Source: Craspedostauros australis (lineage: Eukaryota). From it: 46,434 bases of DNA. Every line of letters begins with the position of its first letter. Position 1 is the stretch's first letter. Below the pieces are notes generated by a model, which was not told the origin of the DNA, made no database searches, and saw only the letters and a program-made list of their open reading frames with translations. Of the stretch, positions 13,165 through 43,743 are shown in pieces. Location of the stretch: positions 1-46,434 of the forward strand of contig JALAGF010002467.1 of assembly GCA_030167865.1 (NCBI GenBank), read 5' to 3'. The position numbers were made by a program, and so were the translations under genes.

Positions 13165-16100
13165 ATGAGCACGAATCCTTTCGATGGCGACGTGTCGTCA
13201 TCCGCAGGGAGACGAACCAGCCGGCTGCGGCCCGGCTCCGGCAGGCCGAGAGGAGTCCCGCGGCCCAAGGCTGAAGATGCGGAACCGGCGATCTGGGCAG
13301 CCAGGAACGTGGAATGGCCGATCCCCACCGCGCTGAGCCTCAGCAACTACCAGAAGCTGCAGCAGACGAGCCGCCAGGCTGGATCGCAGCTGGGCATTGC
13401 GGAGCAGTCGTCTTCGCACGATACCAAGGCGGCGACCTCCAGCGGAGACGACCAGGCCAAGACGGACGAATCCTACTTCTCGGGCATCCTCAGCAGGGTG
13501 CTCAGCCCCACCGTGGAGACGCCCGGCGAGCAGGAGGGAACGCAAGGCAAGGAAGCGACGCATGCGCTGCGTCCGCCTCGCAAGGCCTGCGTGGCGACGG
13601 CCAATTCGTGGATGGTGGCAGCCTTCGAAGTGCAGGGCGACGAGCCGCCATTGCGCTTGGTCAGCCGGTGGAACGTCCGCAGAACCAGCGGCGTGGATCA
13701 GTGGATGGCCTTGCCACCGCCGGTCAACGGCGACGGCCGCATCGCGCACGTCTTCTGCGATCCCACGGGCTGCCACACCCTCGTCAGCGCTCGCAACGGA
13801 GAGGCCTACTACCATCACTCGTCCGTGCGGTACCTGCAGAAGCTCTCCGGCTTCGGTCGCAACCCCGATGGCTCCTGGCCGACCCTGACGAGCGTCTCCG
13901 CCACGCAGGTCGCGCAGGAGAATGTCAACAGCAGCGGCAAGACCTCGACCAACGCCTCCAGCATTCAGAACGGCCTGTCGATCGGATCCTACGTGACGGC
14001 CATCGCCTGGGACAGAGAGCGCGGCACGGAGGGGTCCAGCAAGACGGTGCTGCTCGGCACCGATTCCGGTGAGATCTACGAGCACGCCTTCATGTCTCCC
14101 AGCTCGACGCAGAGCGATGACAGCAAGAACAAGTTCACGCAACCTGTGCTGCTGCATCAGCTCAATTCCGACGGCGCCGTCACAGGGCTGGCATTCGAAC
14201 GCCTGCGCGCGGGATTGCTCGTGATGTGCTGCACTTCCGGACGCGACAAGCGGACCCGCTTCTACACATTCTACTCGGCCAACAACAACTCCTTCCGCAT
14301 GGCATTGGCGGACGAATCCTATTCCTCGTTGGTGGAGCTCCCGGGCAGCGTGGATTGCGCGGAGCTGCGCATTTGCAACGATCAAATCAGCATGGGCACG
14401 GCGACGGGCATTTACTACGGCACCATCGACCGGCAGCTGGCGGGTCCGGCATTCCTGGGCGGGGCCTTGATCATGGATTCTGGCATCCTGCCCTTCAGAG
14501 ACTCCAACATCCCGGTCTCGACAGCGCTCACGCCGCATCACATCATCACCCTCTCCGACAACAACGAGGTCCGCTTCATCAACCGTGTCGCGCAGAAGGT
14601 CATCCAGAAGGAACGCGTCGACTGGGTCTCCCAATCCACATCATCCAGCATCGATGAAACTCGCATGGGAGTGGGCGAGCTCATCATGGACATCCGCCGT
14701 CCAGATCAGGTCTGGTTGCGCAAAGGCAGGAACCTCGTTCATATCTCGCCCACGCAGGAGGATCGCGATGTGTGGAAGTTCACGCTCTTCAAGGCCCTCG
14801 CCATGACCGTGCGATCCTCAGCAACACCACCCCCTGCGGCGGACAGGGGCGGTGTCACCGCTTCCACCACGACGCTGCTTTCGGAGGAGGAGAAGGCGCA
14901 AGAAGGACTGTTCGAGCAAGCCAAGCTCTTGTGCACAAATGCAAGCCAAAAGGCCGTGGTGACGGCAGTTCGTGCCGAATACCATCTCTCGCAGGGTCGT
15001 GCCGAGCTGGCGGCAAAATACCTTGCTCAATGCCCACCCGTTCTGGAGCCCTTCGCCAATTCTGCTATCCGTCTGGCGCTGCCCATGCTCGGCATCGACG
15101 ATCCGCATTCCTACGGCCGATCGCAGAACGCCAAGGAATCTCTCAAATCCAACACGCCTCTGATCACCTACCTGTCCGACAAGATGCGCGTTGCCAAGAA
15201 CAACGACGACAAGATGTCGTGCACCATGATCGGGGCCTGGCTTACGGAGCTCCATCTCCACCAGCGCGAAACCGAGGCATCGGCCAAGCAAGGCCTCACC
15301 ACCTTCCTCACAAGTCAAGTGCAGAACATGGATGCCAAAACCATCATGAAGATCCTCAGTTCGCACGACGTCAGCGCTGCAGAATGCGCCCTGTATGCAG
15401 CCTCCAGCGGCGATCTGGCCACCGCCATCAATGCCGCATTGCACATCGGGACAGGCTCGAATGAAGGCGTTGCGGACGCTTTGCGCATCCTGAACAATGC
15501 ACCTTTCGAGCTGGCGGAACCGTTGTACTACAAGCACGCGCTGACCTTGCTATCACGCGCACCGGTCATGGCAGGCAAGTCCTTCCTCTCGCGCTACACG
15601 CACGGCCTCAGCCCAACTCGAATGCTTCCATCCCTCATGCAATACGAGCGGCTTCGCGCGGAAAGGGCGGTCTCGCGCAAGATCTCGAACGTGCGCGGCA
15701 TGTCGCAGTACGGATCCGACAAGAGCAGACCGAGAAACGGCAGCATAGGAGGCGTGGAAGAGTCCAAGACGATGGAGAAGATCGAGGTTGATGGTCCCGA
15801 AATGGCACTGGCCAGCGGCGGCAGCGTCGAAATCGAAGTCAAGGTGATGAATGCTGCGAGCGCCTTCGTTGACGATCCCAACATAACGGCACGCTACCTC
15901 GAGGGTGTCATCAAGCTGGGATGTCGCAGCAGCGCGATCTACAGCTTCCTCATCTCACTTTACGTCAAACTCAACGACGAAGAACCGCTGTACAAGTTCC
16001 TTTCGGAGCATTTGCCTGGAGCAGCGGCAGTGGCGGATGCATCCCGCAGAAGTGGGTTGCATGGCCAAGACGGACTTTCGGGTCCGTTGGACATGTCGTA

Positions 16101-16941
16101 CGCGTTGCGTGCCATCCTGGCCACAGGACGCCACTTCCGTTCCGCCATCAAGCTGTACATGGGATTCGGTATGAGACAGCAGGCGGTTGAGCTCGCATTG
16201 AAGGTGGATCCGTCGTTGGCCCGTGAGCTGGCGCAGGACAGCGTCGAGCTCGACGAACGCAAGCGTCTCTGGTTGATGATCGCCAAGAACGCAGCATCGG
16301 AAGGCGTCGACACTGGTGAGATCGACGTCGTCTCCAAGGTCGTCTCGGTGCTGCGAGACTGCGGTCCGGATGTTCTCTCCATTGAAGACGTGCTGCCGTT
16401 CCTGCCAGATTTCGCGCAGATTGATCAGATCAAGGACGAGATCTGCGAGGCGCTGACGTCGTACTCGTCGAAGATCGAATCATACCTGAAGGAGATGAAC
16501 GATTGCGATCAAACGTGCGACTCGCTGCGAACGGAGATCCAGCGACTGAGAAATCATCGCATGGAGATGAAGGCCAACGCGCGATGCGCGATCACGAACA
16601 AGACGGTCCTCAATGCCGGCGAGCCGTTCTACGTCTTCCCATCTGGTTTCGTCGTGCTGGAAACGGCGCTGAAACGGGAGGTCATGCCACATTTGAACAA
16701 CCGCCAACGCACACGCGTCGCGGAGATTGAAAGAGAGGTCAGGAACACGTCACGCAGTGCGATTTATTCCGAAGCCGCTATCGCCAAGCTGCAGACGGAG
16801 CTGGATGGTTTGATTGCCGCAGAATGCCCTTTGACCGGGTCCATCATGGTGGACAGCATCGATCGGGGATTTGATGCCGATGGCGACTTCTCTGACTTTG
16901 GCGATCAGCAGAATGGACATGAATTTGTAGCTCACGTGTGA
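13165..16941 (+). CDS. VPS18: Vps18/Pep3 (HOPS/CORVET core subunit)
   Basis: N-terminal beta-propeller (HVFCDPTGCHTLVS, VLLGTDSGEIYE), E-DRDVWK, clathrin-repeat solenoid, LSIEDVLPFLPDF...IDQIKDEICEAL, and C-terminal FYVFP...ECPLTGSIMVDSID. Intronless, 1258 aa. Confidence 0.93.
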   Translation: MSTNPFDGDVSSSAGRRTSRLRPGSGRPRGVPRPKAEDAEPAIWAARNVEWPIPTALSLSNYQKLQQTSRQAGSQLGIAEQSSSHDTKAATSSGDDQAKTDESYFSGILSRVLSPTVETPGEQEGTQGKEATHALRPPRKACVATANSWMVAAFEVQGDEPPLRLVSRWNVRRTSGVDQWMALPPPVNGDGRIAHVFCDPTGCHTLVSARNGEAYYHHSSVRYLQKLSGFGRNPDGSWPTLTSVSATQVAQENVNSSGKTSTNASSIQNGLSIGSYVTAIAWDRERGTEGSSKTVLLGTDSGEIYEHAFMSPSSTQSDDSKNKFTQPVLLHQLNSDGAVTGLAFERLRAGLLVMCCTSGRDKRTRFYTFYSANNNSFRMALADESYSSLVELPGSVDCAELRICNDQISMGTATGIYYGTIDRQLAGPAFLGGALIMDSGILPFRDSNIPVSTALTPHHIITLSDNNEVRFINRVAQKVIQKERVDWVSQSTSSSIDETRMGVGELIMDIRRPDQVWLRKGRNLVHISPTQEDRDVWKFTLFKALAMTVRSSATPPPAADRGGVTASTTTLLSEEEKAQEGLFEQAKLLCTNASQKAVVTAVRAEYHLSQGRAELAAKYLAQCPPVLEPFANSAIRLALPMLGIDDPHSYGRSQNAKESLKSNTPLITYLSDKMRVAKNNDDKMSCTMIGAWLTELHLHQRETEASAKQGLTTFLTSQVQNMDAKTIMKILSSHDVSAAECALYAASSGDLATAINAALHIGTGSNEGVADALRILNNAPFELAEPLYYKHALTLLSRAPVMAGKSFLSRYTHGLSPTRMLPSLMQYERLRAERAVSRKISNVRGMSQYGSDKSRPRNGSIGGVEESKTMEKIEVDGPEMALASGGSVEIEVKVMNAASAFVDDPNITARYLEGVIKLGCRSSAIYSFLISLYVKLNDEEPLYKFLSEHLPGAAAVADASRRSGLHGQDGLSGPLDMSYALRAILATGRHFRSAIKLYMGFGMRQQAVELALKVDPSLARELAQDSVELDERKRLWLMIAKNAASEGVDTGEIDVVSKVVSVLRDCGPDVLSIEDVLPFLPDFAQIDQIKDEICEALTSYSSKIESYLKEMNDCDQTCDSLRTEIQRLRNHRMEMKANARCAITNKTVLNAGEPFYVFPSGFVVLETALKREVMPHLNNRQRTRVAEIEREVRNTSRSAIYSEAAIAKLQTELDGLIAAECPLTGSIMVDSIDRGFDADGDFSDFGDQQNGHEFVAHV

Positions 16942-18465: not shown

Positions 18466-19122
18466 ATGTTTGCTGCACGAGCGCTTGCAGAGGGTTGGCT
18501 GGACGAATAGCAGCTGGATGTGCGAGCACAAGGACTACCTCTGCAATGCAGGCATGCTCGTACGAGTAGTCGTAGTGGAGGCAATAGTAGTAGCCATCGC
18601 TGGTGGAGGTTTGCCCCTGGCTGGGTCCTCGAGGACGGTTGCTTTGGACATCTCAGAACTCGCGCTTTGGTGTCAGTTGGTGGCGATTCCTGGGCGATGA
18701 TTTCGTGTCGTTTTTGGTCGTGGTTGTGTCCTCATTCAGTTCTATTTCTATTTACAGGCATAAATTTAAGTGTGGAAATGGTCAAAACAAAACAGAAGGA
18801 GTAATTTCGTGCTGGTTTCGACAAATAGCGTTCTGCACGTCCAGCGATTGAGAGTAATGACTCATACGATTCTAATTCTTCGACCAAAAATCGTGGGATT
18901 GCACCGTGTTGAGATCATCATGTGCCCAATTGACCATGACAACAGCGATGATCACAGGAAGACACGGAGATACGGATACTCTGTGAGAAGAGGGAAGCAA
19001 CAGGGAGCAACTGCCGAAGACTCCACCAATACCTCCATCAATACCTCCATCCGCACCTATTATACGTGCATGTACCATCATTCGTAGAATATCAGCATCT
19101 GCATCTACATCTGCATTTTGTC

Positions 19123-22100
19123 ATGACTAGCTTGAACGACAATCACAGCCGCGATGGGTCGCTGGGCGTGAGCATGCATCGGGGCTCGAAGCAGGGCAAC
19201 AGCAACGGCAATGGCAGGGGCAGAGGCGAAGTGGCCACGATGGGTTCACCGATGCTGCGGCAGTCCTTCCCAGCTGCGATCCTGGACCCTGCGCAGCAGC
19301 TGTCGGCGCTGCGTGACAACCATTCGGCCTATTCCGCAGTGGCAAAGTCCTGCCTCCATCTCAGCCAGTACGCAGGCAACGGAAGCCACGCGTCGTCGGA
19401 GGACACAGGGTCGGTTCAATTCAGCTCCCTCTTTCATGATACCGCCTACGCAGAGACGATGAACACGGTCTTTGCAGCGCTGATGGAATGCATCAAAACG
19501 CACGATGACCGACGCGCACGAATAGCGGCCTCGCGAACCCTCGCATTTATGGCCCGCAGCACGTACGCTCGCATCCGGCATTCGCCTCACCTTTTCGCCA
19601 TGCGAGAGTCCGTCGTCAATCGCCTTGAGGATGATGTGGGGACCGAAGTCCCGACGGCCTTGTGCACCGCCGCTCTGGATGATCCAGACGAGGGTGTGGC
19701 GGCCACCGCGTTGGAGTCCTTGGGAATCATGACTCTATCGTCGCTCGACACGCCAGGGACCTTGGTGGAAGATGAATTGACCAAGGAGATACTGAGCCTC
19801 ACATCTGCCAAGGCAGCACCGCACGCGCCGACATTGTCGCAGATCTCCGACGAGGATCCCACAATCCCGCAGACCGAGCTGCAGAGCCGCATCTTCGGGA
19901 ATGTCATCGCGCCCCGTTTGTTGCAGCTGGTTTGCAGGGCCACGGCGTTCGAGTCCTTCAAGAATGTCGAACGCATCCTACCCATGCTCACGGCCAGCTT
20001 GGTGCACCAATCCAAGGTCATGCCGCTCAAAGGCTTCGGGATGGACCGCACCACCCACACCAAGCGTTGGGGAGAGCTGGACTTTGTGTCCATGGTTGAT
20101 GACATCATCAACGATTTGCTCATCCCCATGATGCGCTCGCACCATGCCGGCCACGTAGCCAAGACAGTTGCGCTCTGCACCATCCGATTGATCCATGCGT
20201 GCCCGCAGGCCTCCTGGATCGAACAAGCGTGCCAATGGACCTTGCTTGTGCTGCAGGAAGATTACGCGATGTCACGGGACACCGAGGCGCGCATGAGCTG
20301 CCTTGCGGCGATGCTCATTTGCTGTCGTGCGCAAGACATCGGAACGCGGTCGACAGCTCTTCGTTTCATCGCAGAGAAGCTCATCTCTGACATCCCATCC
20401 ACCAAGATAGCACCGCCCAACATCTGCAGTGCAGGACTCATGCTGCAAGCCAGAGGTGTGTCGCAGTATCGAATTCCAGCAAGGGCGGCGTTGCTGGCAG
20501 AAATCTGCTTGTCATTCTTGGTGGACGGACAGGGCGGTGCGGCAATGCAAGACACTACCAACCACAGCAAGGCATTCGATGCATTCATGAAGTCGACAAC
20601 TTTCGCCAAAGCTATCAAAGAGACGCAGGATGGCAAGCCAACGGCCATTCGTGAAGAGATCATCCTTGCATTCTGCATGGCAGCCGTGGGAGTGGGCCGT
20701 TCCTACAGACAGCCACGAAATAGCAAGAAATCCGGACACCTGGTAGTCACTTCATCGCAGGAGAACTTTGATGAATGGCAACGCATGTCCGTCTCCATCC
20801 TCAATGCCTTCGAGACCTGCGTTGGATGGGGATCGTCTCCATCGTACATGGAGGAAGAGATTACGCTGACAGTCGCGGCCCAGGCCAGCTATGTGCGCCT
20901 TGTTCAGGAACTGCTGCACGGATCGGGTCTTCTCGGCAGTGTCTCGGTGTCGCTGCGCATGGCACCGACGGCCTCGCCACCTAACATGCTGTGGGATCAG
21001 ATGGAAGAGTCAGCAGCCTTCCTTGGTCGGTTCGATGCGGTTGGATCGTCCACGTTCATGCCGGAGCCTATCTCATCGCTCCTGCACAAGTTGGTGCAGA
21101 AGGAAATCAAAGGTCAAGGCATCGTTTCGCATCATATGCGCCTCTTTCTGTTGTCGTTGGCGGCAGATTCCTGGGTCCAGGCCAGGTATCACGCCATCCA
21201 AGGCGATTACAACTCCAGCGGCTCACAAGCATCGATATCCGCAAGTGACATTGATCTCAAGGGCGCCAAGGATCTTCTGCAGGCGCTCTCGCCACGCCGG
21301 GTCTTCAGCAAGGTGGTGGAGAGCCAGAAGGGCGAGTTCGAGCAATACACAAAGAAGAAGAAGGAGCTCTACAAGAAGTACGCTCAGGATACGGTCACGG
21401 TCTGCGTTGCGTGCATCGAGAATATTGCGCTGAGCGCATGCGACTGGAGGAAACGATTCGGCGCAAGCGATGAGACAAAGCAGATTCTGACGTCTTCGGT
21501 CATCTCGTTGCAAGGCAAATCCGGTGACGCAGAGTCTCAGGCTCCCGTCCTGCCTGTCTGCCAAGGAGCCATCGAACGCATTCAGGCGCAGTTCTCCAAC
21601 CCGGATGCGTCGAATCCGGACGCACTCTCGCTATCACCTCTCGTGACGAACGTCAACGAGCTGGAACGCAGACCCGTGGTGACAGCGGCGCGATCGCAGC
21701 AGGGGCCCGATATGTACAAGCGAGGGTACCTAACCCAGATGCTGCGGCAAGTGATTGCGGGCCGCATCGATCAGGCAACGTTATCACTGCCCACTGTATA
21801 CTCGCTGAATGCACCAGTCAGGAAACAGAACTTCCTCAGACTCAGCACGCCGCCACTGCCCGAGCACCGAATTTCTCCTGTATCGATGGAAAACATCCCA
21901 AGGTTTGCGTGGCTGTCAAACGTCTCGTCTGTGACGGGTGGTTCGGATGCGTCGTCAGTCATGCTGGCATACTCGATGCGCCGCAATCTCCGCTACGATG
22001 GCGAGAATGAATTCCGGCTCAGCGTCTCCATGCGGCTTCACAACACAACGCCCGTTGACATCGAAAACGGCGTGCGGTTGCAAGTGGGTATCGCGCAGGA

Positions 22101-23010
22101 AGATACAACTTCCAGCTTGGATGCAGAGGATACGCTGTCTATGGAGATACTGGAAGCGTTGAGAAAGGCAGACGAAGCAGCGACGAGTGAAAATGTCGCA
22201 TCGTTGTCGGCAACTACAACGTACAAGCACGAATTGAAGGCCGGCGATCACATCACGTGGGATGTATGCCTGGAGACTTTTCCATTGCATGGAGTGCTTT
22301 CGTTGCACCCATCGATCGTCTATCGTGACATTGAAGTAGAGCAAGCCTCCAGCGATTGGCAAGATGAAGAGAAGAAGGACAGCGACAGCAGCAAAGCCGA
22401 CTCCACCGACAAGGGCAAGGCAGCATCAGGTGAGAGTGGCGGCAACAATGACAACAGCAACAAGAATGGCGACGATGAGGTCGCCAATGTTGTATTTTAC
22501 GGCGAATCGTTGAGATTATCCCCGTTGATCGGTGTGCAACCCTGTCCCTTCGTCTTCTTTCGTGATGGCAGCGGCGACATCGAAACTTTCCGGTTCCTGT
22601 GGTCCAGAATGCCGCATCAAATACACCCATTGCGATTGGTCAAGTACTCTCAAAGCGAAACAAGTGCGGACGATGAGAACTATCCAGTTCACAACGACGC
22701 AAGGCGAATCGCCGCGATATCATCCGTGCGGTTCGGAGGTGAATCCATCCCCCGAGGCCAAGTCACGCGGCTCTGGGCCTTCATGTCGCTGCAAGGGCAG
22801 CGCGTGTTTTGCGTGTTGGCGCATTCTGCGGAGGCCGGGTCTGCCAAATCCAGCAGTGGCATGGAGCCGACGTTGCACATCCGTTCCGATGATGTTCGGC
22901 TGATGCAGTGTCTGGTGGGGACCAAATGGGCCCGCGCAGCGACCGTGTCGGCGTTGGTGCCGCACTTGCAACCAGCTCCGATCAAGGAGACCTCCAGAGG
23001 CTCCGTGTAA
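19123..23010 (+). CDS. Large HEAT/alpha-solenoid + appendage protein, TPLATE/beta-COP-like adaptor large subunit (tentative)
   Basis: Intronless ORF of about 1295 aa from the first ATG. HEAT-like repeats (ALDDPDEGVAATALESLG). C-terminal appendage motifs VTGGSD...RLHNTT...VRLQVG, FRFLWSRMP and LHIRSDD. The CDS itself is secure; the family call is tentative. Confidence 0.65.
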   Translation: MTSLNDNHSRDGSLGVSMHRGSKQGNSNGNGRGRGEVATMGSPMLRQSFPAAILDPAQQLSALRDNHSAYSAVAKSCLHLSQYAGNGSHASSEDTGSVQFSSLFHDTAYAETMNTVFAALMECIKTHDDRRARIAASRTLAFMARSTYARIRHSPHLFAMRESVVNRLEDDVGTEVPTALCTAALDDPDEGVAATALESLGIMTLSSLDTPGTLVEDELTKEILSLTSAKAAPHAPTLSQISDEDPTIPQTELQSRIFGNVIAPRLLQLVCRATAFESFKNVERILPMLTASLVHQSKVMPLKGFGMDRTTHTKRWGELDFVSMVDDIINDLLIPMMRSHHAGHVAKTVALCTIRLIHACPQASWIEQACQWTLLVLQEDYAMSRDTEARMSCLAAMLICCRAQDIGTRSTALRFIAEKLISDIPSTKIAPPNICSAGLMLQARGVSQYRIPARAALLAEICLSFLVDGQGGAAMQDTTNHSKAFDAFMKSTTFAKAIKETQDGKPTAIREEIILAFCMAAVGVGRSYRQPRNSKKSGHLVVTSSQENFDEWQRMSVSILNAFETCVGWGSSPSYMEEEITLTVAAQASYVRLVQELLHGSGLLGSVSVSLRMAPTASPPNMLWDQMEESAAFLGRFDAVGSSTFMPEPISSLLHKLVQKEIKGQGIVSHHMRLFLLSLAADSWVQARYHAIQGDYNSSGSQASISASDIDLKGAKDLLQALSPRRVFSKVVESQKGEFEQYTKKKKELYKKYAQDTVTVCVACIENIALSACDWRKRFGASDETKQILTSSVISLQGKSGDAESQAPVLPVCQGAIERIQAQFSNPDASNPDALSLSPLVTNVNELERRPVVTAARSQQGPDMYKRGYLTQMLRQVIAGRIDQATLSLPTVYSLNAPVRKQNFLRLSTPPLPEHRISPVSMENIPRFAWLSNVSSVTGGSDASSVMLAYSMRRNLRYDGENEFRLSVSMRLHNTTPVDIENGVRLQVGIAQEDTTSSLDAEDTLSMEILEALRKADEAATSENVASLSATTTYKHELKAGDHITWDVCLETFPLHGVLSLHPSIVYRDIEVEQASSDWQDEEKKDSDSSKADSTDKGKAASGESGGNNDNSNKNGDDEVANVVFYGESLRLSPLIGVQPCPFVFFRDGSGDIETFRFLWSRMPHQIHPLRLVKYSQSETSADDENYPVHNDARRIAAISSVRFGGESIPRGQVTRLWAFMSLQGQRVFCVLAHSAEAGSAKSSSGMEPTLHIRSDDVRLMQCLVGTKWARAATVSALVPHLQPAPIKETSRGSV

Positions 23011-23082
23011 ATGAAGGAAAGTTCGGATGCCGTACGTACTGGTGAACTAGCGACGATCAGTATGCGTGATGTACTCCAGAAA

Positions 23083-23101
23083 AGAGAGAGAGAGAGAGAG
23101 A
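23083..23101. repeat. (AG)n microsatellite
   Basis: About 9 AG units downstream of the 19123-23010 gene. Confidence 0.85.
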
Positions 23102-23364
23102 TGTATTTGTGAGTCGGCCCATGAGCTGAGTATTCAACTATTATTTGAGCCATTCAACTGTACAACTCGACGGTATTCGACTGAATCATATTGAGCTCGA
23201 TTGATTGAAACTGGACTTCATCTTGCCGTTGCGGGGCTGCGTTGGACGCACAACTCGATGGTATCCTCCTGTTGTATTAAGACTATTGTAAGAGCATATC
23301 CGATTTAGCATTCGCACATTCGTGCCACAACGAAAAAGGAAACACGATCGCTGCCTGGTCTCTG

Positions 23365-24960
23365 CTAAATTCTTTCCCCCACATTCATCTTATCCATCAA
23401 CCGTTTCAAACTGCGTGGAGAGTTGAATGTTGGGTGAATGACTGTGCCGCCAGAATGGTCCGCATCGCAAAGAATGAAGTCCGGATTGATTCGAAGTTGC
23501 CGTCGGCGCTGTTTCTTGGGTGGCTGTTGTTGCTGTTGCTGTTCTTGATTGGAGCGGCTGCTGTTGGTGGGTACCAGAATCCGAGTGACCTTCTTGCCAT
23601 TTCCAGATTTGATCTTCTTCTTTTGTGCCAAAGGGCGCGCAGAAACCTTATTCTGGTCTGGTCGTTTCGGGTTGGAGGTGGACTGCGTTTGGACTTGGTG
23701 CTGGCCATCAGGTTTACCTCCCATCTTGAGGCAAGCAGCCTCGAACCCAACCGCGGCGACCCAGATAGTTGCATCCTGGGACAGAGGTTTATGGTCGATT
23801 GGTTTGATGGTGGATTGGCGTTGAGAGAGATGCGTGGAATGCAACGCGCTTGATGGAGCAGAGCCAACATTCATGGATGGCGGGTCCATGATTTGCAGCC
23901 ATACTGGCACAAGGGAGTAGATGTTTCGAAGATGAGAGGAAAGTGCCGTTGCTGTATCATTCGGAAACAGTTTAGTGATATCCGAGAATATGAGCACGCA
24001 TGCTGGCGATTCGGCAATTGATTCTTGGTTGAGACGATTGGATGCGACCTGTGCTGCCGCATTTCGCCCCTTCAGGATGCCATGGATGTGCTTGTGCAAC
24101 GCATCTGCCACGCGCAAGCACTCTTTGAGGCTGCCTGATCGATGAACATCGCGTGCACTATCTTCTGTTTCGATGGCCATTGAGTCAGCGGGAGGATTCG
24201 GCTCACGGCTCTGCTTCCCGACAGCTGCAGTTGTCGCTGCTTCTTTTTGAGCTCGAAGATTGCTGGTGCGCTTGGAGGCCTCGATGCCGCGCATCTCACG
24301 CAGACTCTGGCGGACACGGCGGCTAGTTTGCGCGCTGACGCCATTCTCCTCCGCTTCCTTCCCGAGTCTTCTCATCTCCTTCCGTCGATTGCCTTGGAAT
24401 GGATGCAAGGTGAGGTACATGGTTCCATTCTCCCCATCTTGCTGCTGCTGTGGTTGCTGTTGCTGATTAGTGTTCGTCCGTCCAGCCACTCCAGCACGCA
24501 GTTCCGCGATCGCATGATGCACCGTCTCAGCAAACCTGTACAAAATCCCATCGCTCACGCAAATCAGATCGTGCCACATCCTGCAATCTCTCGCAGCCAG
24601 TTCGGGAGGCACTGCGACTTGGCTTGTCAAATGTTGCTGCGTTGATGTTGATGTTGATGTCGATGTTGACGGTTTGGGATCAGGCAAGGTAAGCTTGGAG
24701 ACCAAAGTCCGGAATTCAGCGAATGTCATGCGATGACCTGTGGTGCTTTGCAGGAAATGAGGTAGCAGCTTCCCCTCCAGCTTCAGCAGGCATTGCGTCT
24801 CGATGGCGATTTTCACCTTGTCATCATCCTTCGTTGCGTTGCTCGTTGTGGTGCCGTCGCCCTCCTGGCGTCGTCTTCTCTTGCCGCGCCCATTTCGTGG
24901 TGACTCCGTGACCTCCTTCGGCCGACGTTTCCCATTTTCTGGCTTGGGTGACTGCATCAT
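23365..24960 (-). CDS. Hypothetical nuclear protein, weak resemblance to CDT1 winged-helix domains
   Basis: Open 531-codon frame from ATG 24960. Basic NLS-like clusters (GKRRRR, KKQRRR) and globular segments separated by Q/S/T low-complexity linkers. Confidence 0.6.
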   Translation of the reverse strand: MMQSPKPENGKRRPKEVTESPRNGRGKRRRRQEGDGTTTSNATKDDDKVKIAIETQCLLKLEGKLLPHFLQSTTGHRMTFAEFRTLVSKLTLPDPKPSTSTSTSTSTQQHLTSQVAVPPELAARDCRMWHDLICVSDGILYRFAETVHHAIAELRAGVAGRTNTNQQQQPQQQQDGENGTMYLTLHPFQGNRRKEMRRLGKEAEENGVSAQTSRRVRQSLREMRGIEASKRTSNLRAQKEAATTAAVGKQSREPNPPADSMAIETEDSARDVHRSGSLKECLRVADALHKHIHGILKGRNAAAQVASNRLNQESIAESPACVLIFSDITKLFPNDTATALSSHLRNIYSLVPVWLQIMDPPSMNVGSAPSSALHSTHLSQRQSTIKPIDHKPLSQDATIWVAAVGFEAACLKMGGKPDGQHQVQTQSTSNPKRPDQNKVSARPLAQKKKIKSGNGKKVTRILVPTNSSRSNQEQQQQQQPPKKQRRRQLRINPDFILCDADHSGGTVIHPTFNSPRSLKRLMDKMNVGERI

Positions 24961-29286: not shown

Positions 29287-30984
29287 CTACGGCCGTTGTA
29301 TCCGATCCGCCATTTCTAAAGACAGGTGCTTGAGATCGGCTTGGATATCGTGCGTGATGAAGTATTGGTCTTCGCGCGCTTCCTCGATACCGAGCAGCAA
29401 TTCATTCAACGGCAGATTGGCGGCAACCTCCTCCTCCTCTCCTATCATGTCACTGTTCTGCTGCCCGCCTTCCTCCTTGAGCGTGTGGTAGACGTGACAC
29501 GGCAATTCTAACTTGAGATTGTTGTAGGCGTCGCCTTCGCACACAACTATGTCGACCTGCAACGACACGGTGCATTCCACAATGTCCGTCGACAGCGTGC
29601 AGGGCGCATCCAACGGCAGCAGCATGCTGGCGCCGACCCGATCCGTCATGCCGGGTTCCACAAGGGAATGGCACGTATCAAAGACGAAGGTGCGAGTCTT
29701 TTGGGTCTTGCGATTTTCGTAGACAGCCTTTTCTTCGCCGTGCAGGCAGGCGCTGACCTGGTAGCAGGGGATCCATTCGTCCTGGACGTGGTGCAGGTGC
29801 TGCGGGAAATCCCATTTGAGATGGACGCGGGAGCCGGGTATCATTTGAGAGCCGCCGACGACGGTGAGGACGCAGACGGGACGGCCCTCGTGGTTGGAGA
29901 CGCGCAGGGTCTGAAAGTCCGTGGCTCTGGGACGCAACGTGGATGCCGAAGAGATGGTCATCTGTCCTTGCGGTCGATGCTGGTCGGTGGGGGAGATATG
30001 CAGAGGGAGACCTATGGAATGCGCGATGCCGGTGCAGTTGCCGACCTTGAGACGACCGCTGGTAATGCGACGGTTACCGTCGGCGGGCGACGGCAGCTGG
30101 GTTGTGGAGGGGCTGGAGAGGAGGATGAAGGGCGTCTTGATGACCTTCTCTTGCGTGGGCGACTTAATGAGGACGTCGACGGAGTAGAAGTAGCGGCATG
30201 TGGTGGAGACGATGGTGTGCGGCAGATCGTTGGGTATGTCGACGCGGAATGTGTACGCCAACTGCTGAATTTGCTGCTCCTGCAGCGGCTTGTGATGTCC
30301 GATGGTCCGCTCCTCCAAATCGAAGACCTCGAGGCCGTTGGTGACCCAAAATACTACTGTGTCGCTATCCCCCGCCGTCAGCAAATCAGCATCGTAGCTC
30401 TGAAGGAGAGACTGGATGAGGGGATGCTTGCCATATAGCTTGGCGTACTGCGCAACGTTGTGCCATCTGGGATCGATGCGACAGCATCCAACGGCGAAGA
30501 CCGTGATGGAGGTGAGGGCATCGCGCAGCGAGTAGTCCGGGTTGGAGGACGACGTGACGCCAGGTGGTGGCGTGACGCGCAACGTGCCCACGACGCTCTG
30601 GCCCATACGGTAGCTCGATCGCGACAGCACGACCTCGAACTTGGGCAGTTTGGTGCTTTGCTGGGCATGCAGGGATTGCTGGAGTTGGGGCGTCTGCTGT
30701 TGTGGTTGTGGCCGTGGCCGTTGTCGCTGTCTCTGTCGTCCTTTGTGTTGCTGCGCGCTTGACGTCGATGATGTCTTTGCATCTCCCGGTGCGGCTACCG
30801 TTGCCACAGCCTCTGCCACCTTCCTCGTGAGCGTGATCGAGGAACGATCCAGCGACATGAGCTTGGAGGAGGCTGAGCCGTCGATGGGGCTGTTCTGCCT
30901 TGCGAGATGCGCCGAATTGGTTGGAGGCCTTGCCGGTTGTGATCCTCTCGACCTGCCTGCTGGTGGTTTCTTCCTTCTATCCAT
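29287..30984 (-). CDS. RGP1: Rgp1 family protein (Ric1-Rgp1 Rab6 GEF subunit, arrestin-like fold)
   Basis: ATG 30984. Arrestin-like segments: YRMGQSVVGTL, YTFRVDIPNDLPHT...RYFYSV, PCYQVSACLHGEE, LPLDAPCTLSTDIVECTVSLQVDIVV. Confidence 0.7.
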   Translation of the reverse strand: MDRRKKPPAGRSRGSQPARPPTNSAHLARQNSPIDGSASSKLMSLDRSSITLTRKVAEAVATVAAPGDAKTSSTSSAQQHKGRQRQRQRPRPQPQQQTPQLQQSLHAQQSTKLPKFEVVLSRSSYRMGQSVVGTLRVTPPPGVTSSSNPDYSLRDALTSITVFAVGCCRIDPRWHNVAQYAKLYGKHPLIQSLLQSYDADLLTAGDSDTVVFWVTNGLEVFDLEERTIGHHKPLQEQQIQQLAYTFRVDIPNDLPHTIVSTTCRYFYSVDVLIKSPTQEKVIKTPFILLSSPSTTQLPSPADGNRRITSGRLKVGNCTGIAHSIGLPLHISPTDQHRPQGQMTISSASTLRPRATDFQTLRVSNHEGRPVCVLTVVGGSQMIPGSRVHLKWDFPQHLHHVQDEWIPCYQVSACLHGEEKAVYENRKTQKTRTFVFDTCHSLVEPGMTDRVGASMLLPLDAPCTLSTDIVECTVSLQVDIVVCEGDAYNNLKLELPCHVYHTLKEEGGQQNSDMIGEEEEVAANLPLNELLLGIEEAREDQYFITHDIQADLKHLSLEMADRIQRP

Positions 30985-41777: not shown

Positions 41778-43743
41778 CTAGTCCTTTCCTCTGGTCATCA
41801 GGGCCTTGACGTACTTGGTCAGCATGACATCAAGCTTCGACTCAGGATCGTACAAAGGGTTGATCTGACCTTCCTTGACGCCTGAGAGGAGGTGGTTGAC
41901 ATCGCGGTGTTCTGCCTCGTCGGCGCGCACGGCATACATCAAGTCCAGTACGGTTCCTGTCTCACCGAGCTTCCAGTAGGCACGGGCGATCTTGGGTGGT
42001 TGTTCGGTGCGCCATGCCGCGAGCTCGTTGTCCTCCGGTGCATTCTCAATCGCCTTGATGATCTTTGTGTATGTGGAGCAAGCCTCCTCTTCGACGTAGC
42101 CGACGAAACGGTGGCAGAATGCCGGGCTCAGGATGTATGCGGTGGTGAATGCGAGGCCGAAACCGAACTGGCCCACGATGACGGCGGCGCGCAGGGTCAT
42201 GCCTGGATCCTTCATTCGGACGAATGTCAGCAAGTGCATGCTGTGGAACATGGTCAAGTAATTAGAGTCCATAGACCAGGCGTGCGTTCAGGAACGCCGT
42301 CGTCAATCCAAGCAAAATTCGTGAGAGAGGGTGTGAGACGGCATCAGTGAGCAGACCGCAGTCTCCTTGTTCGAGATTCGATCGATCGACTGCCGCTTCG
42401 CTCGTTCTTTTGTCCATCCACAGAACGAATTGGATCTGTCGAGCGGAGCGCAGTCCACTTGTGTCGCAAGCACGCACCACACAAGCGCGCCAACGAAGTG
42501 AAAAGCCAAGCATACATTCACAGGTTTGGTGTATGCAGCGGGATAGAAACACTCGCACTCAGATATCCGTAGAGCAGGCATGACGGAATGGAGAAAAAGA
42601 GTCAAGCAAGTGGAGGTGAAGTAGACGTACCGTTCATTGTTTGCCTCTTCGAGGAAAAGCTGCATGTAGCCACCATCGGCCTTCATGGTGCGAAGAGAGC
42701 GGAAGTGTCTCACGATGGCCTGTACTCGTATGTTGACGAGACGATAGAGTTGCACGGCAGAATCAGATGGTGACAACCGAGAAAGGGCAAAAGCAGGGAG
42801 AATGCAATCAAATGTGTACACATGGGAGATCGATAATGATGAGATTTGAGAATGCAAGGACAGTGCATGCCAGCATAAGAGCGTCATGCAGCGATGAACA
42901 TGCCATGGTGCTGCAGGACGCGACGCAACAAAAGCATATCGCAAGGTTGTCAACGCATCTTTCACTTACAGCAACCATCCCGGGGACCGCAGCGATCGTC
43001 TCGAGGTAGATTGTGCGGTTGAGCACGTTGTTTGCGGTGATGTTGTCGCTCCTCCAATTGGTGGCGGCATCGAAGAGGACACGCACTCCTTTGACGGAGT
43101 TGTACGCCATCTTGTCGATGATGCCCTTTGGCTCGACATGGGTGAGCTTCACATCGAGCTCCTCTGTCGTGTAATGTCCGTGAGATTTGCCAAGGTTGAT
43201 GAACTCAACGCCATCTCTGCCGATGCCCAGCGGATGACGTCCACTCTCACGGAAGTGCTGAGTGTGGTCGTCGTCCGTCGAGGTGGAGATGCCTGAGACG
43301 GCGCCTCGGTCGGCTACACGGTCGATGGCTTCGATGAAATTGTCAAAGCGAACAGAGCCTCCTGCCTTGGCGGCGTAGTAGAGCTCCCCGATCTCGACGA
43401 CTTCTTCATCGGTGAAGACGTCACAGTGTTTGTGCAGGAGCTGCTTCAGCTCTTCGGCATCCAAACGTCCGTTGTTGTCCTTGTCGACCGCCATGAGCTC
43501 CGCCTTGATTTGACGCACCATGCTCTTGTCGAGCGACTTGAGGGGTCTCTCGACGAAGCCGGGGACATTGTCAACAGTTGGCGCTGCTTGCGCGGAGAAG
43601 GGTCGGAAAGAGATGGCCGAGGCTGGTGCTGCGGCGTTGAAAGACTTGAGGGAAGAGGACCTGAAAGCGGTGGCACCAAGACGGAGCGTGCTCCGGCTGG
43701 TTGACAGCTTCGTCAGGCGTTGGACAGCGGTGACGGAGAACAT
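41778..43743 (-). CDS. AOX: Mitochondrial alternative oxidase with N-terminal EF-hand; exons 43743-42970, 42719-42631 and 42240-41778
   Basis: Mitochondrial presequence. Di-iron motifs LETIAAVPGMV, EEANNERMHLLTF (restored by splicing), FVGYVEEEA..TY and RADEAEHRDVNH. EF-hand DKDNNGRLDAEEL. Confidence 0.95.

Follow-up and report, generated by a model that had tools for sequence, protein, structure and literature searches.

A candidate TPLATE-like coat subunit with adaptin/COPI architecture in the diatom Craspedostauros australis

The window analysed here is the whole 46,434-nucleotide contig JALAGF010002467.1 of Craspedostauros australis (assembly GCA_030167865.1). It contains a gene for a large protein, P0001, which in structural models is built like a large subunit of the adaptin/COPI type, i.e. 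a solenoid trunk followed by a bilobed appendage. We consider P0001 a probable diatom orthologue of TPLATE, which in TSET is the large subunit of the beta type. TSET itself is ancient and related to the AP adaptor complexes as well as to the COPI F-subcomplex. An earlier reading of the DNA, made without database searches (the sequence-only reading), had proposed a divergent TSET large subunit; the adaptin/COPI architecture is borne out by the models, while the TPLATE identity is favoured only, by way of similarity in the ESM Atlas. Because diatom TPLATE was already reported in 2025 (PMC12167817), the gene is a sound annotation and not a discovery, and it opens no new system.

Gene structure and domain organization

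According to the ORF list and its translation, 19123..23010 (+) is a single unbroken ORF of 1295 codons plus a stop, with zero internal stop codons. The frame opens upstream at a GTG and spans 19066..23010 (+); its first ATG, at 19123, yields exactly 1295 aa, in agreement with the earlier estimate of about 1295. In the alignment, the N-terminus of P0001 matches the start codons of the homologues, and the gene thus appears to be intronless and complete. Judged by sequence comparison, the ORF is a real coding frame and no chance frame, since full-length homologues abound. The following features were delimited:

19123..23010, + strand: whole coding sequence, apparently intronless, 1295 aa plus stop, P0001 (ORF list, translation, full-length collinear homologues)
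19123..19437, + strand: N-terminal stretch, residues 1-105, of low conservation, rich in Gly/Asn/Ser and probably disordered (conservation, pLDDT)
19438..21786, + strand: predicted alpha-solenoid trunk, residues 106-888, HEAT-like repeats (AlphaFold2, HEAT_2)
21787..21921, + strand: low-confidence linker, residues 889-933, about 45 residues (pLDDT <50 in model m2f2fce3ebd45)
21922..22347, + strand: appendage beta-sandwich, residues 934-1075 (model strands, Foldseek, VIA, conservation)
22348..22479, + strand: acidic/Ser/Lys-rich disordered insert ahead of the final sandwich strand, residues 1076-1119 (pLDDT, conservation)
22480..22521, + strand: final sandwich strand and platform junction, residues 1120-1133 (model strand 241-247)
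22522..22974, + strand: appendage alpha/beta platform, residues 1134-1284 (model, whole-ear alignments, conservation)

The motifs quoted in the sequence-only reading are all present in P0001 in the order stated. From residue 937 onward the protein reads 'VTGGSDASSVMLAY...RLSVSMRLHNTT...VRLQVG'; 'SIVY' is followed by the acidic/Ser-rich insert and then by 'VVFYGESLRLSPLIGVQP...FRFLWSRMP', in which FRFLW corresponds to residues 1156-1160, and 'LHIRSDDVRLM' comes after this block.

Predicted fold of the trunk and appendage

An N-terminal helical solenoid and a two-part C-terminal appendage had been proposed from the letters alone, and the AlphaFold2 models show both. The trunk model (m2c4131153158; pLDDT 85.5, pTM 0.89) is helical nearly throughout, with one small beta hairpin at about residues 427-452 and another at about 529-542. 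It began after residue 80, and residues 81-103 have a pLDDT of <50; the mean top-residue frequency of residues 1-105 is 0.33 in an alignment of 48 family sequences. Pfam HEAT_2 matches residues 119-201 with an E-value of 0.012. The fold matches of the trunk are generic HEAT/ARM solenoids: an AP-3 trunk model reaches a Z value of 13.7 and is tied among them, and importins, SF3B1 and CAND1 match equally well as adaptins. As modelled, the trunk is thus a generic solenoid and not specific to adaptins. The linker behind it carries the motif N-[WP]-L-R-L-x-x-P-P-L-P (residues 903-913, 21829-21861), which, judged by eye, recurs in many sequences of the 48-member alignment.

The appendage was modelled with AlphaFold2 (m2f2fce3ebd45). 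Its sandwich opens with a 'TGGSD...AY...N-x-T' block in which S941 and D942 are conserved in at least 90% of the sequences and N974 is invariant. The acidic insert has a pLDDT of <50 at model residues 197-237 and forms the internal conservation minimum of the protein (top-residue frequency 0.24; 0 of 44 columns at 0.8 or above). The platform consists of helices and strands at model residues 255-405, mostly with a pLDDT of 82-95, and contains the block 'QPCP.VFF...GD...FRFLW', where P1140, F1145, D1152 and F1156 are conserved in at least 90% of the sequences and W1160 is invariant. The C-terminus of P0001 lies 11 residues past the last platform strand.

A Foldseek search with the appendage gave 15 matches at E ≤ 0.001, which were COPI coats and ears, AP-2 ears and the Fanconi core complex. 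The COPI, gamma-COP, AP-2 alpha and beta2 ears were found at E-values from 1.6e-6 to 9e-4, the top match being the COPI coat entry 9qpq_H (E 1.6e-6). With VIA, the three top matches covering both lobes were the ears of alpha-adaptin (Z 11.7, 210 aa, rmsd 4.8), of AP-2 beta2 (3h1z; Z 11.0, 209 aa) and of gamma-COP (Z 10.2, 230 aa). They differ by no more than about 1.5 in Z, which amounts to a tie, so the appendage fold cannot tell COPI from AP ears. The whole-ear alignments with the alpha, beta2 and gamma-COP ears span model residues 26-403. The best whole-domain matches of the appendage are thus COPI and AP-2 appendages. The bilobed fold is the same as in the AP-2 alpha, AP-2 beta2 and gamma-COP ears, but over the 209-230 aligned residues identity is just 8-11%. 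P0001 also differs from the solved ears by a helical insertion (model residues 120-137), by the 44-aa disordered insert within the sandwich and by the orientation of the lobes (rmsd 4.5-6.9 Å).

A family of diatom homologues

The protein search with P0001 returned 28 proteins at E ≤ 0.001; 27 of these are 32-55% identical to the query and cover 87-98% of its length. In a full HMMER profile scan, 173 of 1.84 billion representatives matched at E ≤ 0.001, 88 of them at E ≤ 1e-30. In BLASTP, the homologues are collinear with P0001 from the trunk through the C-terminus. All homologues with an organism name come from diatoms, both pennate and centric, with one protein per named diatom genome encountered; a Phaeodactylum sequence was not among the named homologues found. 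Names were looked up for 26 clusters among the 150 listed of the 173 HMMER matches, and these were diatom or unnamed metagenome proteins only. No named adaptin or bona fide TPLATE was found among them.

In the Pfam scan, P0001 and 27 close homologues were searched at E ≤ 10 and 34 distant ones at E ≤ 0.1. Adaptin_N (PF01602), Coatamer_beta_C, Coatomer_b_Cpla and the other adaptin families matched none of these 62 members, and profile searches of the PDB sequences gave no adaptin match at E ≤ 10. The plant TPLATE clusters in the ESM Atlas likewise lack a common Pfam family, and a missing adaptin match is therefore no argument against TPLATE. Because the diatom family goes unseen by Pfam and by HMMER searches of large databases, its named members are called 'hypothetical' or 'uncharacterized' (UniRef entries from Thalassiosira, Cylindrotheca and Nitzschia, for example, read 'Uncharacterized protein'). 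The sequence-only reading had described the protein as unannotated-looking, which holds with the exception of one automatic UniRef name, 'AP-5 complex subunit beta-1', given to the Cyclotella atomus homologue UniRef100_A0ABD3PFI7.

Relationship to TPLATE

The orthology with TPLATE is suggested by the ESM Atlas. After its own family, the clusters nearest to P0001 are plant 'protein TPLATE' clusters at 0.91 and 0.90 (205 and 202 of 256 features shared), and for a 50%-identical homologue (P0012) both plant TPLATE clusters lie at 0.89; the recognition values of the two queries, 2016 and 1758, are under the tool's mark of 2300, where its high scores are weak evidence. For both queries beta-COP clusters come next (0.88-0.84), together with AP-3 delta (0.84-0.82). 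Among the Atlas neighbours listed there was no cluster of gamma-COP, of alpha, gamma, delta or epsilon adaptins (AP-3 delta excepted) or of SH3-bearing, TASH3-like proteins.

In its 'TGxSD...AY...NxT' block, and in having a charged insert ahead of the last sandwich strand, P0001 resembles beta-COP and plant TPLATE. P0001 shares with Arabidopsis TPLATE (At3g01780) the order of a solenoid trunk followed by a sandwich and platform appendage, as reported for the plant protein (PMC7909872) and seen in our models. The lengths are similar (1155-1165 aa in the plant clusters, 1295 aa in P0001), and neither the plant clusters nor the P0001 family has a common Pfam family. However, P0001 has about 100 aa of additional low-complexity sequence at its N-terminus as well as the 44-aa acidic insert, and it is missing the C-terminal anchor that is described as plant-specific (PMC7909872). 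Mutation of sandwich and platform is reported to abolish complex assembly in Arabidopsis TPLATE (PMC7909872), and the invariant and near-invariant residues at the start of the sandwich and at the sandwich-platform junction of the diatom family fit this report.

The sequence-only reading knew of no characterised TSET in diatoms and would have counted one as a notable system. The novelty of a diatom TSET did not stand: Penot-Raquin et al. (2025) report that diatoms have TPLATE, TCUP, TSPOON and TTRAY, whereas only TSAUCER is missing, which their dedicated searches did not find in any diatom (PMC12167817). TPLATE was detected in 266 of 330 AP1-positive stramenopile libraries (81%), diatoms included, with Phatr3_J54511 as the Phaeodactylum tricornutum protein (PMC12167817); a widely conserved diatom family such as that of P0001 is therefore to be expected. 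The P0001 family is found across diatoms, as is published for TPLATE (PMC12167817). We found no experimental study of diatom TSET in the literature, and the 2025 survey is computational.

By analogy with TSET of Arabidopsis and Dictyostelium, P0001 may assemble with TCUP, TSPOON and TTRAY and may have an endocytic role. The trunk would pair with the second large subunit and cradle TCUP, the medium subunit, by its longin domain. The sandwich and platform appendage would fold back as an interaction hub for the outer TTRAY (WD40-solenoid) and for accessory endocytic proteins, and the complex would work at the plasma membrane in the formation of endocytic vesicles.

Alternative identities

It is unlikely, although the name of the Cyclotella atomus protein says so, that P0001 is diatom AP-5 beta, i.e. 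the AP5B1 orthologue; AP-5 is a late-endosomal complex that works with SPG11/SPG15, and AP-5 beta is its large subunit of the beta type. The cluster to which that protein belongs (P0117) matches the profile with an E-value of 4e-67 and is collinear with P0001, and AP-5 beta is described as a notoriously divergent solenoid with a very short linker, sandwich and platform and no clathrin-box hinge (PMC3191125). The linker of P0001 is likewise short in the model (about 45 residues). Yet its trunk is longer than that of AP-5 beta, and its 1295 aa exceed the range of about 740-1100 aa given for beta-type subunits (PMC3191125). Pfam contains families specific for AP5B1. No such family was among the Pfam matches of the 62 members (E ≤ 0.1 to 10, depending on the member), and AP-5 beta was absent from the matches listed for the 30 nearest Atlas clusters of either query, where TPLATE and beta-COP were found. 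A single named homologue carries the AP-5 name, which suggests a lone automatic prediction and not a signature of the family.

We regard it as slightly less likely again that P0001 is a second, unrecognised adaptin-like large subunit of diatoms, distinct from Phatr3_J54511 and acting as a stand-in for TSAUCER or as a lineage-specific coat subunit. The gap left by TSAUCER despite dedicated searches (PMC12167817) would be filled in this way, and a family unseen by Pfam and by HMMER against named proteins could have been overlooked by standard surveys. Against this, the Atlas neighbours are of the beta type (TPLATE, beta-COP), with no TASH3-like cluster and AP-3 delta only at 0.84-0.82 among the matches listed, and each named diatom genome encountered contributed just one protein. 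With TPLATE present in 81% of the stramenopile libraries (PMC12167817), the simplest reading is that the widespread family is that TPLATE. More doubtful still is the extension that the P0001 family functionally replaces TSAUCER, so that a duplicated beta-type subunit would make the TSET core of diatoms complete, in which case the linker motif (N-W/P-L-R-L..PPLP) would be a candidate docking site for partner subunits.

The sequence-only reading had held that the protein is not a true beta-COP, and we agree that it is no canonical one. P0001 has the domain order of beta-COP, a subunit of the COPI F-subcomplex, with COPI coat as the best Foldseek match of the appendage and beta-COP as the second-nearest Atlas group, and the 'TGxSD...AY...NxT' and 'FRxxW' motifs are common to both; it is, though, about 330 aa longer. 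Least likely of all, if not far below the preceding proposals, is a beta-COP paralogue that has diverged strongly, or else a solenoid protein of other descent whose ear-like domain arose by convergence or was acquired independently, with a role outside AP/TSET-type coats: the beta-COP clusters at 0.88-0.84, the equally good trunk matches to importins, SF3B1 and CAND1 and the ear-like sandwich and platform modules that Foldseek and VIA also found in the Fanconi core (7kzp) and in BBSome subunits speak for it, but the canonical beta-COP Pfam families are absent from all 62 members scanned, a separate canonical beta-COP cluster exists in the Atlas (972 aa, commonest taxon Bacillariophyta), and to our knowledge both ear lobes in the correct order directly after a long solenoid occur only in AP, COPI and TSET large subunits.

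Implications

The automatic labels of this family, TPLATE-like and AP-5 beta, are in conflict. If the TPLATE reading is true, diatom TSET would gain a clean gene model for its hub subunit, intronless, full-length and with the domain boundaries marked. The map of trunk, linker motif, sandwich, acidic insert and platform may then aid the design of tags and truncations.

Gene and neighbourhood

The gene under study is uninterrupted for 1295 codons at 19123-23010 (+), counted from the first ATG in the ORF list and translation. The sequence-only reading had described a protein of about 1295 aa with a series of motifs, and every one of these was found in its product, P0001, in the order given there. 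An in-frame GTG 57 bases 5' of the ATG can be disregarded because the starts of the homologues coincide with the ATG position. The window has a GC content of 50-59% and is ordinary diatom nuclear DNA. The genes nearby are typical eukaryotic ones (a Vps18/Pep3 homologue, a mitochondrial carrier, an mTERF protein and an alternative oxidase), and no coat subunit was found among these neighbours. The following features are considered here:

19123-23010 (+): gene of P0001
17263-18465 (strand opposite to the P0001 gene): flanking gene
23365-24960 (strand opposite to the P0001 gene): flanking gene
13165-16941 (+): 1258-aa ORF, Pep3/Vps18 beta-propeller domain (E 1.1e-28), HOPS/CORVET tethering subunit
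29287-30984 (-): 565-aa ORF, similar to Rgp1 (E 4.6e-4) and Arrestin_C (E 6.8e-4) only weakly and below threshold
42808-43743 (-): one ORF with an EF-hand pair and an alternative oxidase (AOX) domain

The placement of Pep3/Vps18, an endolysosomal trafficking gene, 2 kb upstream of the P0001 gene is probably coincidental. The 565-aa ORF may encode Rgp1 of the Ric1-Rgp1 Rab6 GEF, and the combination of EF-hands and AOX domain suggests a calcium-regulated AOX or PTOX-like protein.

Conservation and distribution of the family

The P0001 gene is real and conserved. A word-indexed search yielded 28 proteins at E <= 0.001, 27 of which span 87-98% of P0001 with 32-55% identity; searches of this kind delivered close pennate-diatom relatives only, and one with a broad alignment brought no further proteins. 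In a HMMER profile scan of the full set of 1.84 billion representatives, 173 proteins reached E <= 0.001; for 144 of them E was 1e-10 or lower, and for 88 it was 1e-30 or lower. A BLASTP search with P0001 against the 124 fetched proteins that are 900 aa or longer matched every one, with trunk and C-terminal region collinear and identities down to about 20-23%. Wherever the source names an organism it is a diatom, both pennate (Cylindrotheca, Nitzschia, Pseudo-nitzschia, Epithemia, Amphora and the araphid Thalassiothrix) and centric (Thalassiosira oceanica, Cyclotella atomus). The nearest relative is only 55-56% identical to P0001, so the DNA probably comes from a raphid pennate diatom close to the Bacillariaceae that has no entry of its own in the databases. 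Some homologues derive from transcriptome collections (MMETSP, EukProt), and the family is therefore expressed in other diatoms. For the P0001 locus no RNA record is listed; a contig of one run, the kind of which is only guessed as RNA, is identical to 22092-23200, which does not show that the locus is expressed.

Six homologues of 1208-1228 aa (P0024, P0025, P0051, P0054, P0055 and P0063) stop at the equivalent of P0001 residue 1160, just past the FRFLW block, and have no platform. They probably reflect gene models cut short at an intron in metagenome contigs and not a real short form.

Trunk and appendage structure

A long solenoid directly followed by a sandwich/platform ear is known only from the large subunits of AP, COPI and TSET complexes. 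Structure models confirm this adaptin/COPI/TSET-type architecture for P0001, and it is on the succession of solenoid and ear, not on sequence, that the superfamily placement is based. P0001, 34 distant and 27 close homologues had no Pfam match beyond sub-threshold HEAT-type repeats (HEAT_2 in 9 of the 27 close homologues) and scattered chance matches, so the family does not match the canonical beta-COP and AP-type profiles. Among PDB sequences, a single-sequence phmmer search with P0001 found 0 matches at E <= 10. A profile built from an alignment of the family (A1) retrieved only nup85 (E 0.068) and a broader one (A4) only SAS-6 (E 0.45) and an AAA ATPase (E 2.9), with no adaptin in either case; we read these three as chance matches.

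Residues 81-891 were modelled by AlphaFold2 from a 64-sequence alignment as a confident alpha-solenoid (pLDDT 85.5, pTM 0.89). Fold searches with the trunk (Foldseek, VIA wide and a VIA second look) were uninformative, with generic HEAT/ARM proteins on top: importins, SF3B1, CAND1 and designed repeat proteins tie with the AP-3 trunk model (7p3x_A, Z 13.7) at Z of about 13-14, a range that is non-specific for helical repeats according to the tool's own warning. AP-1 (4hmy_A) appeared at Foldseek rank 41. The modelled trunk also contains two small beta hairpins at protein residues ~427-452 and ~529-542 (model 347-372 and 449-462), an unusual feature for adaptin trunks.

The C-terminal part with the appendage (residues 880-1295) was modelled by AlphaFold2 from 27 sequences. 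The model begins with a disordered linker, the beta-sandwich that follows is broken by a short helical insertion, and within the acidic insert 41 residues (model 197-237) fall below pLDDT 50; the alpha/beta platform lies mostly at pLDDT 82-95. Foldseek returned 15 PDB matches at E <= 0.001. All belong to COPI (the leaf 9qpq_H at E 1.6e-6, the gamma-COP ear in 1r4x and 1pzd, and further coat entries such as 5nzr and 5a1u), to AP-2 ears (beta2 in 2iv9 and 1e42, and alpha) or, with two chains, to the Fanconi core complex. An independent fold scan of 48,161 chains with VIA-align was topped by three matches covering both lobes. The alpha-adaptin ear aligned over 210 residues with Z 11.7 and rmsd 4.8, the AP-2 beta2 ear over 209 residues with Z 11.0, and the gamma-COP ear over 230 residues with Z 10.2. 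Most other matches covered only the sandwich, about 100 residues. The helical trunk with a two-part appendage proposed from the sequence is thereby upheld as an architecture. The fold matches of the trunk are generic and not adaptin-specific; the appendage best resembles COPI and AP-2 ears.

In 48 aligned sequences with a mean column identity of 21%, invariant or near-invariant residues were found at the start of the sandwich (S941, D942, N974) and at the sandwich-platform junction (P1140, F1145, D1152, F1156, W1160). The otherwise disordered linker carries the motif N-[W/P]-L-R-L-x-x-P-P-L-P at residues 903-913 (21829-21861), which by eye is kept by the majority of the pennate homologues in this alignment and by many of the centric ones. 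Its proline-rich part is similar to SH3/WW ligands, and it may be a docking motif.

Assignment to a subfamily

We favour the view that P0001 is TPLATE, which is probable but unproven. The main competing candidate is AP-5 beta, in which a short linker joins a solenoid to a full appendage (described in the domain account of Hirst et al. 2011, PMC3191125). P0001 has all three in common with it, and architecture alone can therefore not separate the two.

Names were looked up for 26 clusters among the 150 listed of the 173 profile matches, and none tied the family to a named TPLATE, AP or COP protein; they comprised diatom species and 'hypothetical', with a single instance of 'AP-5 complex subunit beta-1'. 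The latter is the UniRef name of one Cyclotella atomus homologue and speaks for AP-5 beta, while Thalassiosira, Cylindrotheca and Nitzschia homologues are listed as 'Uncharacterized protein'. In the ESM Atlas feature search, on the other hand, the clusters next after the family's own were plant 'protein TPLATE' (0.91 and 0.90 for P0001; 0.89 and 0.89 for P0012, a 50%-identical homologue), followed by many beta-COP clusters (0.88-0.84) and then AP-3 delta. For neither query was an AP-5 beta set among those displayed for the 30 nearest matches.

Both pointers are automatic, of language-model type and in disagreement, and we treat them as leads and not as tests. We gave more weight to the Atlas because a second family member reproduced its result, because a TPLATE orthologue should have TPLATE as its nearest neighbour and beta-COP as the next, and because the total Pfam silence of the family fits plant TPLATE, the Atlas clusters of which have no common Pfam family, better than AP-5 beta, for which Pfam holds dedicated families. 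Identity with AP-5 beta is unlikely.

Diatom TSET and the proposed role of P0001

According to the sequence-only reading, a TSET in a diatom would be a notable system; its novelty has been superseded by the survey of 742 algal genomes and transcriptomes of Penot-Raquin et al. 2025 (PMC12167817). Its passages on stramenopiles report TPLATE in 266 of 330 AP1-positive libraries, describe diatoms with 5 of the 6 TSET subunits and identify the TPLATE of P. tricornutum as Phatr3_J54511; according to the preprint's account, TPLATE had not been detected in Thalassiosira pseudonana by a survey of 2014. The same passages report no TSAUCER in diatoms, dedicated HMM searches included. It is very doubtful that the P0001 family closes this gap as a second large subunit. 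No experimental study of TSET in diatoms came up in our literature searches.

Returning to TPLATE, the sections of Yperman et al. 2021 (PMC7909872) on its domains describe a trunk, a sandwich/platform appendage and a plant-specific anchor, and report that mutations in sandwich or platform abolish complex assembly. Beyond the fold, we infer every step of the mechanism for P0001. As a TPLATE orthologue, it would use its trunk to bind the partner large subunit and the longin domain of TCUP, and its appendage would fold back into a hub at the plasma membrane on which accessory proteins and the TTRAY subunits assemble. Such a hub role would fit the near-invariant residues at the sandwich start and the sandwich-platform junction.
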